Shown here: positions 50,426 through 54,155 of the stretch, piece after piece
How the letters are laid out: each line of letters opens with the position of its first letter
Numbering within the stretch: the first letter of the stretch is position 1
NCBI GenBank assembly: GCA_965215185.1
Contig: OZ244034.1
Location: 2,720,001-2,784,000 of the forward strand
Reading direction: 5' to 3'
Length of the DNA stretch: 64,000 nt
Source: Acidimicrobiia bacterium
Lineage (GTDB): Bacteria > Actinomycetota > Acidimicrobiia > Spongiisociales > ZC4RG35
Notes under the pieces: model-generated
Seen by the model: only the letters and a program-made list of their open reading frames with translations
What the model was told of the DNA's origin: nothing
Databases searched by the model: none
Program-made: the position numbers and the translations under genes

Positions 50426-50628
50426 CTGGTAGCGAGGCTAGTTACAAACTCCGCAAAAGGGGGTGGCATCAGGGTCCATTTCCCGCCTGGGGATAGCGGA
50501 GGGGTCTGGCTACGACCGGGGCGAATCAGAGACAAAATGGGATCACTACCTTGAATCTTGGGTGACCACCGGCGGGTTCCGGTTGGGTGAATGGCGTTGG
50601 CGCTTGGTTCTGTAGTCTTATGGGGGTC

Positions 50629-51555
50629 ATGGCGACCATCGCCTATCCCCCCATCCCGATTTGGGAAGTCGGACCCTTGCGGTTCTCGTTGCACGGCCTT
50701 TTTGCCGCCGTGGGTTTCTTCGTGGGCTTTTGGGCGGTGGCCCGTATGTTGGAGAAGAGGGGTTTTGACCCGGCTGGCTTCCACTCTTTGGCGGTTTGGG
50801 TATTGCTGGGCGGCCTCTTGGGTGCCCGACTTCTAACTGCTCCTGCCGCTTTGCTGGATGGCGCTGGCTGGGCGGCCCTCAACCCAGTAGTCGGCAACTA
50901 TTCGATAATGGGTGGATTCCTGGGCGGAATTGTGGTGGGAGTGTGGCGGATGCGGCGATTGGAATTGCCGACCCTTCCCATTTTGGATCTGGCTTCATTC
51001 GGATTGGCATGGGGAACGGTGGTGGGAAGGATCGGTGACTTGGCCATAGTCGAGCACCTGGGTCGGGCCACCGAGGTGGCGTGGGGATACGAGGTGCGGC
51101 CCGGCTACGACTTGGCCCCCCAGCACAACGGGTTGGAATGCACCCTCCTTGAGGCCGGACCGGATGGGATCTGCGGGGTTTACCACCATGTAGCCCTATA
51201 CGGCATGCTGGCCGCCGGGGCGTTGCTGGTTGTGTTATGGCTGATCCAACGGCGGGCGCCACTGCGATATGGACAACTCTTTTCGATCTGGGTGGTGTGG
51301 TATGGCCTGCAGAGGTTTGCGTTGGACTCTCTTCGGTTCGGGATGGGAGACGCCACCCTGGGGGGATTCACGTGGAATCAGGTGAGCGCCCTGGGTGGAT
51401 CGGTGTTGGGGGTGACGCTCCTGTGGTGGTTTGGAAGACACCGGCCAATGGTTTCATCCGAAGCTGATGAGAGCTTAGGAGCAACTTGGGCGATGGCCTC
51501 CGGCGAGGATGCATCAGCAGGCGGCCATTTGCAAGAGCCGCCCACTGGACAGTAA
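50629..51555 (+). CDS. lgt: Prolipoprotein diacylglyceryl transferase
   Basis: HGLF, LGARL, SIMGG, GRIGD...EHLG, YGLQRFALDSLR, NQ. Confidence 0.85.
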   Translation: MATIAYPPIPIWEVGPLRFSLHGLFAAVGFFVGFWAVARMLEKRGFDPAGFHSLAVWVLLGGLLGARLLTAPAALLDGAGWAALNPVVGNYSIMGGFLGGIVVGVWRMRRLELPTLPILDLASFGLAWGTVVGRIGDLAIVEHLGRATEVAWGYEVRPGYDLAPQHNGLECTLLEAGPDGICGVYHHVALYGMLAAGALLVVLWLIQRRAPLRYGQLFSIWVVWYGLQRFALDSLRFGMGDATLGGFTWNQVSALGGSVLGVTLLWWFGRHRPMVSSEADESLGATWAMASGEDASAGGHLQEPPTGQ

Positions 51556-51558
51556 TAT
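51529..51558 (+). promoter_or_regulatory. Housekeeping-sigma promoter for the leader transcript
   Basis: TTGCAA-N18-TAATAT, with ATG 7 nt downstream (leaderless geometry). Confidence 0.6.
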
Positions 51559-51565
51559 TGCTCCG

Positions 51566-51628
51566 ATGTTGGTAGAAGAGTTCGATCGCTATTTCGTCTT
51601 TACCGGGCCCCGGCTCCGGGAGGCATAG
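51566..51628 (+). CDS. Phe/Tyr-rich attenuator leader peptide (20 aa)
   Basis: MLVEEFDRYFVFTGPRLREA: three Phe and one Tyr within codons 6-12, upstream of a chorismate mutase fusion gene. Confidence 0.75.
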   Translation: MLVEEFDRYFVFTGPRLREA

Positions 51629-51656
51629 CGCGGACCAACAACCGACGACTGACCTG

Positions 51657-51685
51657 ACCCGGAGCCCGGCTCCGGGTTTTCTTTT
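51657..51685 (+). terminator. Intrinsic terminator of the attenuator
   Basis: ACCCGGAGC-CCG-GCTCCGGGT followed by TTTCTTTT. The 5' arm can alternatively pair with GGCTCCGGG at 51612-51620. Confidence 0.85.
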
Positions 51686-51722
51686 GCCCGCAGCCGCCGG
51701 TTCCCAACAACACTAAAGAGGT

Positions 51723-52790
51723 GTGGAAGTGGAGAGACAAGCAACCAAGAAAAGCAGGTCACAGCGCACTGTGGTGCGGGTGGGGGACACCAGATTCGGA
51801 CGGGACCCGTTTCCGGTCATCGCCGGTCCCTGCGCGGTGGAGAGCGAAGAGCAGATCAACACCGTGGCAGAGGCAGTGGCCGAGAATGGAGGTTCCATTC
51901 TGCGAGCCGCGGCCTACCGCTCGGGTAACTCTCCCTATAACTTCAAGGGCTTAAAGCTGGAGGGAGCAAAACTGCTGGCGGCTGCTGGAAAACGGGTGGA
52001 TTTGCCGGTGGCAATGCCCATCATGGAGGAGCGCGACCTGGAAGAGTCAGGCGATTTGGTGGATATTCTGGAGATCCACCATGGGTCTATGCAGAATTTC
52101 GAGTTGTTGCGCGTCGCTGGTCGTTCCCAAAAGCCTGTGATGCTTAGACGCGGCCCATCGGCGACCATTGACGAGTTTCTGTGGTCGGTGGAATACCTGA
52201 TGGCTGAGGGAAACGATCAGATCATCCTGGTCGAGCGGGGCATCCGTACCTTTGGAACCGGCCATCGCGACACCTTGGACATCACCGCGGTCCCCCATCT
52301 GAAAGAGGTGTCACATCTCCCGGTGCTGATTGATCCCAGTCACGCCTCTGGTGGGGCGGCGCGGGTGCCGCCTTTGGCCCTGGCTGCCCAAGGGGTGGGC
52401 TCGGATGGGCTGATCGTGGAGGTCCACCCTCAGCCGGAAGCCGCCAAAACCGAAGGACCCCGCCAATTGTCTCTCACCGAGTTCGCCGAATTGATGGTAC
52501 AATTGGGCATTAGTCGGCTTCGTTCCGGCATCGATCTGGTGGATCGGGAAATCGTCAGGCTTTTGGCCCGCAGGCGACAGCTATCCCAGGAGATCGGCCG
52601 CGCCAAGGCCGACCGTGGCTGGCCTGTGAAGAGTCACCACCGGGAGGTGGAATTGTTGGAGGCGGTGCGGGAAGAGGCCATTGTTAACCAACTCGACCCG
52701 GATCTGATAGAGAGATTGTTCAACCTGGTGCTGGAGGGTTCCCGCCGGGCTCAAAGAGATATGCGCATTGATCCGGAGGAAGGAAGGTAA
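51723..52790 (+). CDS. Type I-beta DAHP synthase-like domain (degenerate active site) fused to a C-terminal AroQ chorismate mutase
   Basis: IAGPC.VES, ERGIRTF, DPSH, IVEVHP; C-terminal LRSGIDLVDREIVRLLARR...IGRAK...RE...SRRAQ. Confidence 0.9.
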   Translation: MEVERQATKKSRSQRTVVRVGDTRFGRDPFPVIAGPCAVESEEQINTVAEAVAENGGSILRAAAYRSGNSPYNFKGLKLEGAKLLAAAGKRVDLPVAMPIMEERDLEESGDLVDILEIHHGSMQNFELLRVAGRSQKPVMLRRGPSATIDEFLWSVEYLMAEGNDQIILVERGIRTFGTGHRDTLDITAVPHLKEVSHLPVLIDPSHASGGAARVPPLALAAQGVGSDGLIVEVHPQPEAAKTEGPRQLSLTEFAELMVQLGISRLRSGIDLVDREIVRLLARRRQLSQEIGRAKADRGWPVKSHHREVELLEAVREEAIVNQLDPDLIERLFNLVLEGSRRAQRDMRIDPEEGR

Positions 52791-52860: not shown

Positions 52861-52933
52861 GGCCCCGTCGTCCAGCGGCCTAGGACGTCGGCCTTTCAAG
52901 CCGGTAACGCGGGTTCGAATCCCGTCGGGGCTA
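52861..52933 (+). tRNA. tRNA-Glu (TTC)
   Basis: Cloverleaf with acceptor GGCCCCG/CGGGGCT, anticodon loop CTTTCAA, T-loop GGTTCGAATCC. No encoded CCA. Confidence 0.96.
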
Positions 52934-52954
52934 CTCTCTACGCAGTTGAGATAC

Positions 52955-53494
52955 ATGTCGGTACAGCTATACAACCGCTTTTTGTCGTTGCTGGTCCTTA
53001 TGGCCCTGGCGGCTGTGGTGGCCTTGGCGTTTCGTCCGGTGAGGCGTGCCGCAGTTGGTATGGGTCTGGGCGGGTCTTGGAAGTGGCCAGCGTTTGCGGT
53101 GGCTGCCCTGGCCACGGCGGGCAGCCTTATCTTCTCGGAAGTGATCGGCTATGAACCCTGTGAATTGTGTTGGTACCAGCGTATCGCCATGTATCCCATG
53201 GTGGTGATCTTCGGCGTGGATGTGCTGGGTGGGCAGTCCCGAACCCGCCGGTACGCTCTGCCGCTGGCAGTGGTGGGGTTTGGCATCAGCGTTTATCACT
53301 ATCTGGTCCAGGCTTTTCCCGCCGCCGGCGGAGGGGTGTGCGGCGCCGGGGTCTCATGCTCGGCCCGCTATGTGGAGGAATTCGGTTTTGTCTCCGTTCC
53401 CTTTATGGCCGGGGCGGCATTTGCCCTGATCATCGCTATCCTCCTGGCTTTCGGGCGACCGGTGATGACAGGAGTGCAGGCTGATGACGGCTAG
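52955..53494 (+). CDS. dsbB: Disulfide bond formation protein B (BdbC-like)
   Basis: PCELCWYQR, YH, second Cys pair, FGFVSVP. Confidence 0.92.
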   Translation: MSVQLYNRFLSLLVLMALAAVVALAFRPVRRAAVGMGLGGSWKWPAFAVAALATAGSLIFSEVIGYEPCELCWYQRIAMYPMVVIFGVDVLGGQSRTRRYALPLAVVGFGISVYHYLVQAFPAAGGGVCGAGVSCSARYVEEFGFVSVPFMAGAAFALIIAILLAFGRPVMTGVQADDG

Positions 53495-54155
53495 GAGCCA
53501 AAAGGCCAAGAGTCAAAGAAAGTGGGTTGTCATTGGGGGCGTGGCGGGGGCGGTGCTCATCGCCGGACTGGTAGCGGTGACCACCGTGAACAGCACCGCA
53601 CCGGACCCGGTACAGGTCACCGTGACCGGGGAACCTATCCCGATTCTTTCCAGCAATGTTCCGTTGGGCCAGGACATTGCCTTTGGCTGGGATTCTCCCA
53701 CTCTCAGTGGGTCGGACTGGAATGGCAATCCTGTGACCATCGATCCGAGCGACGGGCGTGCCAAATTGATCGTGTTCCTGGCGCATTGGTGTTCCCACTG
53801 TCAGGCAGAGGTACCCGAGGTACAGGCGTGGCTCAACCAGACCGGCGGGAACCCCGCCGTGGATATCTACGGAGTAGCCACTTCCATAGACCGCTCCCGT
53901 CCCAACTGGCCGCCCGGGGACTGGCTGGAAAGGGAGGGATGGACGTCGCCCACCGTGGTTGACAAGAACAACAAAGCAGCGACGACTTTTGGTTTGTCGG
54001 CCTTTCCCTATTGGGTGGTGGTGAACCCCGAAGGCAAGGTGGTGTACCGAATAGCAGCGGGTATCGGCATGGAGGGGATGCTTAACCTGCAGCAGTTGGC
54101 CACCCAGAGCATGGAAGATTTGGAAGCTTTCATCTCTCAGAGCCAGCAGAGCTGA
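53484..54155 (+). CDS. Membrane-anchored TlpA/thioredoxin-like disulfide oxidoreductase
   Basis: N-terminal TM, AHWCSHC, cis-Pro motif AFP. Confidence 0.88.
   Translation: MTARSQKAKSQRKWVVIGGVAGAVLIAGLVAVTTVNSTAPDPVQVTVTGEPIPILSSNVPLGQDIAFGWDSPTLSGSDWNGNPVTIDPSDGRAKLIVFLAHWCSHCQAEVPEVQAWLNQTGGNPAVDIYGVATSIDRSRPNWPPGDWLEREGWTSPTVVDKNNKAATTFGLSAFPYWVVVNPEGKVVYRIAAGIGMEGMLNLQQLATQSMEDLEAFISQSQQS

Follow-up and report, generated by a model that had tools for sequence, protein, structure and literature searches.

A predicted ribosome-mediated transcription attenuator rich in Phe and Tyr codons before a DAHP synthase-chorismate mutase fusion gene in Acidimicrobiia

The leaders pheL and pheM of E. 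coli place Phe codons in a short reading frame with competing hairpins, and control a chorismate mutase (CM) fusion, pheA, and pheST (PMC11802643 and PMC3082878, in the sections available); the latter source describes pheL as mostly gammaproteobacterial (PMC3082878). In actinobacteria, the nearest described system is aroR (cg4017) of Corynebacterium glutamicum, a Phe-Tyr-Phe leader before aroF (PMC4046766, Mentz 2013). The start of aroR determined by sequencing is the start of its ORF and is marked LL, and a supplementary table of the same paper records it in a few corynebacteria (PMC4046766); aroR is also mentioned in PMC7356990. According to a summary of Neshat 2014, read-through into aroF responds to limitation for Phe, not Tyr (PMC11802643). 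The leaderless Phe-Tyr-Phe leader of aroF contradicts the novelty premise of the original prediction for the DNA studied here, that the known actinobacterial leaders sense Trp, branched-chain amino acids or Cys (PMC4046766, PMC11802643). Other described actinobacterial leaders include trp attenuators, which share a gGCC-rGCy-GGCC core (PMC1262725), and the leaderless trpL, leuL, ilvL and thrL of Streptomyces lividans, in a genus where leaderless attenuators are said to be common (PMC8079986).

The window analysed here is a stretch of 64,000 nucleotides from an Acidimicrobiia bacterium (GCA_965215185.1, contig OZ244034.1, positions 2,720,001 to 2,784,000, forward strand), a group for which no description of a leader-peptide attenuator was found in the literature searched, with subscription journals mostly outside its coverage. 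Before a DAHP synthase-CM (DAHPS-CM) fusion gene, we found a leader that is very probably a classical four-segment ribosome-mediated transcription attenuator responding to Phe, or to Phe and Tyr. Our confidence rests on its anatomy, conservation, covariation, gene association and codon content, and on the loss of barrel residues in the downstream enzyme; from these we infer the transcription start, leader translation, stalling, termination and enzyme activities. The features discussed below are as follows.

50587-51555, + strand: upstream lgt-family gene, whose tail carries the promoter and which ends 10 nt before the leader ATG
51529-51534, + strand: putative -35 box TTGCAA inside the lgt 3' tail
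51553-51558, + strand: putative -10 box TAATAT, 18-nt spacer from the -35 box, 7 nt to the ATG
51566-51628, + strand: leader ORF of 20 aa, MLVEEFDRYFVFTGPRLREA (ATG 51566, TAG 51626-51628), read from the sequence, with no Shine-Dalgarno (SD) site (best anti-SD duplex -3.0 kcal/mol)
51581, 51590, 51593 and 51599, + strand: aromatic codons F6, Y9, F10 and F12 of the leader, respectively, with the putative sensing codons Y9, F10 and F12 spanning 51590-51601
51587-51630, + strand: protector (1:2) hairpin, in which segment 1 is 51587-51608 and the top stem is CCGGGC; -18.4 kcal/mol, the minimum-energy fold of nascent RNA ending at 51632-51656
51612-51623, + strand: segment 2, the antiterminator 5' strand, pairing with 51653-51666
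51656-51685, + strand: predicted intrinsic terminator (3:4), with a 10-bp stem at 51656-51678, a CCG loop and the U tract TTTTCTTTT; -17.8 kcal/mol
51723-52790, + strand: regulated gene, a DAHPS-CM fusion with DAHP_synth_1 and C-terminal CM_2 domains, starting at GTG 51723 or GTG 51729

Like aroR, the leader is actinobacterial, has Phe/Tyr codons, precedes a DAHP synthase gene and would be leaderless, with the start predicted here and mapped there. It differs in the length of the ORF (63 nt against 78 nt), in codon order (Y-F-x-F against Phe-Tyr-Phe) and in its target, a fusion of a type I-beta barrel with CM; the likeness rests on the description of aroR, not on its sequence. With pheL-pheA and pheM-pheST it shares the Phe codons, short leader, competing hairpins and predicted control of a CM fusion, and related leaders described below also precede pheS in 16 loci, as pheM does pheST. 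Unlike pheL and pheM, these leaders have no SD, mix Phe with Tyr and carry dispersed codons with no long Phe runs. As in actinobacterial trp attenuators, a self-complementary tetramer is reused in every stem (CCGG here, GGCC there; PMC1262725), whereas the amino acids and targets differ from those of the trp, leu, ilv and thr leaders, with no Phe/Tyr leader among those described in the available parts of PMC1262725 and PMC8079986.

The promoter that had been proposed, TTGCAA-N18-TAATAT at 7 nt before the ATG, was found in full, as was the 20-aa ORF with F6, Y9, F10 and F12. The first three bases of the -10 box (TAA) are also the lgt stop codon. A consensus promoter scan returned nothing; TTGCAA/TAATAT scores 8/12 and falls under the threshold. 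The promoter is backed by conservation. Most relatives' leaders have a TTG/TTT hexamer 16-19 nt 5' of the -10 box, and in 79/82 leaders the start codon is preceded at 6-11 nt by a TAnnnT box, compared with 2.4% of random ATG/GTG codons, a figure somewhat inflated because leader starts were picked with a preference for such a box. With the box at this distance, the implied 5' leader is 0-4 nt. Only one of 82 leaders forms an SD-like duplex, and the transcript is likely leaderless, judging from the spacing of promoter and ORF. We identified 93 promoter-plus-short-ORF candidates in the genome, and the leader at 51566 is the only one with at least three Phe/Tyr in seven codons and a terminator. 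In most same-genus loci (L001-L017), too, the lgt stop codon coincides with the -10 box or falls only a few bases from it, ~10 nt ahead of the leader's start codon. Ribosomes finishing lgt could also reinitiate on the leader ORF, and transcripts from lgt would meet the attenuator terminator too.

The leader holds the full classical set of mutually exclusive 1:2, 2:3 and 3:4 helices. The perfect terminator with a CCG loop that had been proposed before the gene was recovered at 51656-51678 together with its U tract, and the proposed antiterminator pairing with the terminator 5' arm is a perfect 9-bp duplex (51612-51620 with 51658-51666; the fold of 51609-51667 is -29.7 kcal/mol). The 12-mer copy described earlier is exact (51609-51620 equals 51665-51676), although it copies the loop plus the 3' arm and not the arm alone. 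All the parts named in the original prediction were found; what it overlooked is the protector hairpin at 51587-51630, in which codons R8-Y9 and V11, along with CCGGGC, base-pair with segment 2 and the stop codon. Folding of the nascent RNA at increasing lengths indicated that the protector forms before the terminator 5' arm is made. The whole leader folds with z = -3.3, and none of 200 shuffles was as good. The tetramer CCGG is present in all four strands, and among the first 44 leaders these four cores hardly vary. At the gathering score, Rfam matched only a tRNA in the whole window, with no riboswitch, T-box or Phe leader match.

To follow the element across genomes, we used the downstream protein, a strict sequence pattern and covariance models. 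The protein search covered 41 genomes and gave 30 orthologue loci, all of which carry the element. A contig search for related loci gave 15 same-genus loci already in the set and one distant DAHP synthase. The pattern search, which is independent of the gene, was run on 401 class genomes and gave 35 matches. Among the 30 loci that came with these, 25 precede the same gene, one precedes pheS, and four (three outside the order, one inside) were rejected as chance. Covariance model R1 matched 102 of 151 genomes of the order (E up to 0.01). With the wider model R2, 21 of 151 class genomes gave a match; 19 belong to the order and two lie outside it, and of these two, the one match that was looked at is a plain terminator and was rejected as chance. 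Over the phylum, R2 matched 19 of 151 genomes, with 20 new loci made up of six aromatic leaders and 14 plain terminators or coding sequences. Two of 40 weak matches fetched (L137, L147) were also considered chance. The window's own genome showed no second copy of the element and none before its pheS. One locus (L025, G030:C10) has a leader frame without a stop that reads on through the terminator, whereas its close relatives L084 and L086 differ; this may be a real loss or an assembly error.

Among 44 distinct leaders, 39 have Phe and five have Tyr as the last sensing codon (44/44 Phe or Tyr), and the -2 codon is Phe in 38, Tyr in five and Gly in one (43/44 Phe or Tyr). The codons switch between TTY and TAY and still remain Phe/Tyr. 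The first 44 leaders alone hold little true covariation. In the model alignment of 90 rows, 97.6% of cells pair and 11/15 pairs show two-sided change, exceeding all 500 shuffles and all slid controls, counts that are qualified by the alignment having been fitted to the structure and taking in three antisense echoes. In the same 90 rows, the protector helix is 95% paired with two-sided change in 6/6 pairs, and the terminator helix is 99% paired with such changes in 5/9. The antiterminator duplex beats shuffles (z below -1.64) in 72/87 loci and fails in 15/87, several of which are pheS copies. The alignment of orthologs proposed in the original prediction came out in its favor, with F/Y codons conserved and stems showing two-sided changes.

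These comparisons bear on whether the hairpin is just a constitutive lgt terminator with an incidental short ORF. The gene arrangement in the window would suit this reading, with lgt ending 10 nt before the ATG and a promoter that is weak by consensus, and lgt is also upstream in 22 of the 49 CM loci with enough flank. In the other 27, however, there is no lgt upstream and the element remains with the downstream gene, so that the element belongs to the latter. It also recurs before pheS and type I-alpha DAHP synthase genes, with the Phe/Tyr codons and three alternative helices conserved. We therefore regard the lgt-terminator reading as largely refuted and scarcely credible, and retain the attenuator.

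To classify gene contexts, 88 loci were run against the model, leaving out 12 near-identical same-genus loci, duplicates and chance loci. This gave 90 matches, or 87 classified matches once the three antisense echoes were dropped, with six or seven frames corrected by hand. The downstream gene is aromatic in 87/87: a DAHPS-CM fusion in 66, pheS in 16 and a type I-alpha DAHP synthase in five. Codons were counted in the nine positions ending at the last sensing codon. Before DAHPS-CM fusions we counted 188 Phe, 102 Tyr and no Trp among 594 codons; Phe and Tyr together make up 290/594, against a background of 5.3% (Phe 3.1%, Tyr 2.2%, with Trp at 1.5%). Before pheS there were 34 Phe, 4 Tyr and 1 Trp among 144 codons, and before type I-alpha DAHP synthase 14 Phe, 6 Tyr and 3 Trp among 45, with Trp in 3/5 leaders. 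Tyr is present in 63/66 CM leaders vs 4/16 pheS leaders; the Fisher value of 8e-9 overstates the contrast, because related genomes are not independent samples and a single origin, possibly one duplication, may underlie the pheS copies. In the 11 genomes with both CM and pheS copies, Tyr is higher in the CM leader in eight, equal in three and lower in none. Codon content thus follows pathway position, as would be expected of codons that serve to sense amino acids.

The pheS-associated loci (L068, L108, L110, L112, L114, L116, L118, L120, L122, L124, L126, L127, L130, L131, L141 and L142) have Phe-rich, Tyr-poor peptides. The element lies before a type I-alpha (AroF/G/H-like) DAHP synthase, the class of C. 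glutamicum AroF, in family f12 (L128, L132, L134, L135, L138 and L139), and in this I-alpha group segments 2, 3 and 4 are altered in concert, with antiterminators that stay at 10-14 bp. Weak matches (E 6e-5 to 2e-3 per genome) were found in one family of another class in the phylum (L149, L150, L151, L154, L155 and L161). These six precede an intact ACT-DAHP synthase with KHRT for KPRT, and all contain Trp, Tyr and Phe; they may be either homologous or convergent. Two further loci were noted on their own account. The G440 bin has two near-identical leader-plus-fusion copies (L094, L125) on different contigs as well as a pheS copy, which could reflect duplication or a mixed bin. Outside the window, at ~2830555 of G000:C1, minus strand, a near-leaderless ORF, VRYIGLLLVLE, and a terminator precede an acetolactate synthase-like gene (read as ilvB) and together are likely an Ile/Leu/Val attenuator.

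To explore how a ribosome on the leader could control the switch, we used a position model with the RNA cut just before segment 3 and footprints of +6, +9 and +12, in which 10/87 rows were left out for frame or alignment problems, leaving 77. Segment 2 is inside the protector in 73/77 ribosome-free nascent leaders cut at this point. It is free only at A-site offsets of -1 to +2 (+9), -2 to +1 (+12) or 0 to +3 (+6) from the last Phe, and past this permissive window the ribosome covers it. With the ribosome optimally placed, 76/77 leaders have segment 2 free, compared with at most 6/77 when it stands two or more codons short of the permissive window or one codon beyond. In the window leader, an A site from ~F10/V11 to G14, depending on footprint, is predicted to free segment 2. 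F12 is within the permissive window under 3/3 footprints and F10 only under the longest. F6 and Y9 are outside under every footprint, so that not all four Phe/Tyr codons can act as the original prediction states; in the model, a ribosome at F6 does not disrupt the protector hairpin. At F12 with the +9 footprint, segment 2 of the window leader is free with a probability of only ~0.5.

The choice of cut matters, as only the cut before segment 3 gave a clean three-state switch, and neither the cut after segment 3 nor the full-length fold did so. In ribosome-free RNA cut just after segment 3, the antiterminator is preferred at equilibrium in 28/30 loci. For the full window leader, the best fold depends on where the RNA ends: it is terminated with a cut at 51685 (-49.9) and antiterminated with one at 51690 (-53.3). 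In its full-length equilibrium fold with a ribosome at F12 it still terminates with a probability of 0.83. Since equilibrium folds favor the antiterminator without a ribosome, an off-default state needs kinetic trapping. The switch would thus be kinetic, as is established for classical attenuators. The folding check proposed with the original prediction is therefore borne out by the footprint model cut before segment 3 and not by the full-length and later-cut equilibrium folds. Its mechanism, in which a stall frees 51612-51620 and full translation covers it, agrees with conservation, covariation and footprint folding, except that not all four codons can act. We also searched assembled contigs of three metatranscriptomes (X1-X3), where 6-13% of words were present in short scattered contigs, none of them over the leader, which is too sparse for inference.

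The attenuator would then work as follows. A promoter in the lgt tail would begin transcription at the leader AUG or slightly (a few bases) upstream of it. When charged tRNA-Phe (and tRNA-Tyr) is abundant, the ribosome would pass G14 and cover segment 2, and the terminator would form. With no ribosome, segment 2 would first be caught in the protector hairpin, which would favor termination too. A stall at F12 or F10 (possibly Y9) would melt segment 1 and leave GGCUCCGGG free to pair with CCCGGAGCC, and RNA polymerase would read into the DAHPS-CM gene. Phe12 and Phe10 are the predicted main sensors under the footprint model. Tyr sensing is less certain, and what speaks for it is comparative.

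A sub-case of this attenuator is that it is effectively Phe-only in the window, with Y9 and F6 kept for the protector stem or as spares, which we consider possible though short of probable. Y9 (offset -3) lies outside the permissive window under all three footprints, in the range where segment 2 is free in at most 6/77 leaders, and in the protector its TAT codon is base-paired to the region around the stop codon; in the summary available for C. glutamicum, Tyr availability had no effect on the aroF operon (PMC11802643). The comparative data point the other way, since Tyr is in 63/66 CM vs 4/16 pheS leaders and never fewer in the CM copy of the 11 same-genome pairs, and the last sensing codon is itself Tyr in 5/44 leaders. 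Equilibrium folds with a ribosome at either Y9 or F10 also give the antiterminator.

A different possibility is that the leader is translated and the RNA switches, yet the signal is not simple tRNA shortage. One form of this would be nascent-peptide stalling on F-T-G together with a free amino acid or metabolite; another would be an RNA that is bound by a protein or small molecule. The F-T-G motif is strongly conserved (T in 37/44, G in 41/44). In actinobacterial ilv/leu leaders, changing codons had little effect, and in the S. coelicolor ilvB leader, mutations of regulatory codons are described as having no effect (PMC1262725, in the part available). However, these T and G codons make up the CCGG of segment 1, and this accounts for their conservation; in members whose fold is retained they are replaced by A, S, W, I, E or P codons. 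Codon content also tracks the downstream gene, all four classical segments are present, and the window had no Rfam riboswitch or T-box match. A signal other than tRNA shortage is thus improbable, and ribosome-mediated attenuation through charged tRNA is the reading we carry forward.

The regulated gene, which the original prediction left unnamed, encodes a degenerate type I-beta DAHP synthase-like barrel (residues 22-260) followed by an AroQ CM (residues 266-344). Compared with solved type I-beta enzymes, the barrel has RSGN for KPRT, HHGS for GARN, LRRG for LKRG and TEG for SDA/SDS. It is therefore without the K, R and T of KPRT, the R of GxR, the K of LKRG and the D of xDG, while the C, H and E metal ligands are kept. 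The KPRT, GxR, LKRG and xDG residues are described as ligands of PEP, E4P and metal in the available text of PMC6362186, and P-R-T as E4P-binding in that of PMC12202928. Across 61 fusions, 12/12 ligand sites are intact in only 11, and 50 have lost at least one. Seven CM catalytic positions (R11, R28, K39, R51, E52, S84 and Q88 equivalents, in what we take to be the E. coli CM numbering) are kept in 60-61 of the 61. The DAHP synthase half thus looks dead and the CM half intact, as judged from residues. A tree of the barrels, with the trait columns left in, gave two to three changes to the degenerate state, of which firmly supported branches force only one; repeated loss is for both reasons not established. 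Downstream of the fusion there is a tRNA gene (52861-52933), followed by DsbB-family and thioredoxin-like genes (52946-54155).

A CM_2 search of the genome, which is 95% complete, matched the fusion alone, and a CM_1 search returned no match. An intact ACT-DAHP synthase paralogue is present elsewhere, followed by a dehydrogenase-like ORF that we read as a putative tyrA. With the fusion as the only CM match and its barrel without substrate-binding residues, what the attenuator rations is most likely the CM activity. CM opens the Phe/Tyr branch, which fits Phe and Tyr codons without Trp. The same domain order is described for the C-terminal DAH7PS-CM fusions of Prevotella nigrescens and Porphyromonas gingivalis, a fusion that one paper calls specific to periodontal pathogens (PMC8408635, PMC12202928). 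In those enzymes the barrel supports CM, the isolated CM has a Km ~tenfold higher, and PEP, Mn and E4P activate CM (PMC8408635, PMC12202928, as far as available). Their barrels are catalytically active, in contrast to those here, where 50/61 lack at least one of 12 ligand sites by sequence. The support and activation of CM by the barrel in those enzymes suggest a scaffold or allosteric role for the barrel here, and no description of a pseudoenzyme role for this barrel fold was found in the literature searched, whose coverage mostly left out subscription journals.

Tentatively, we propose that one attenuator chassis was copied within this order of Acidimicrobiia and retuned by its codons, to Phe and Tyr before CM, to Phe before pheST, and to Trp, Tyr and Phe before DAHP synthase. 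Its main target would be a CM whose dead barrel was retained in many families, where it would serve as a scaffold or sense PEP, metal or pathway intermediates allosterically. The mechanism is a textbook one with actinobacterial precedent; the element family and its half-dead target enzyme appear to be uncatalogued. The fusion genes pass the cut-offs of two DAHP synthase models even though most lack the catalytic loop, and correcting the annotation of genes labelled DAHP synthase on this basis matters for metabolic models. The covariance model supplied here covers a family without an Rfam entry, and the three gene contexts form a natural experiment in how codon content sets attenuator specificity. 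With this element, the range of leader-peptide attenuation in the aromatic pathway comes to include a largely uncultured order of actinobacteria, and the fusions point to a possible pseudoenzyme-regulated chorismate mutase.
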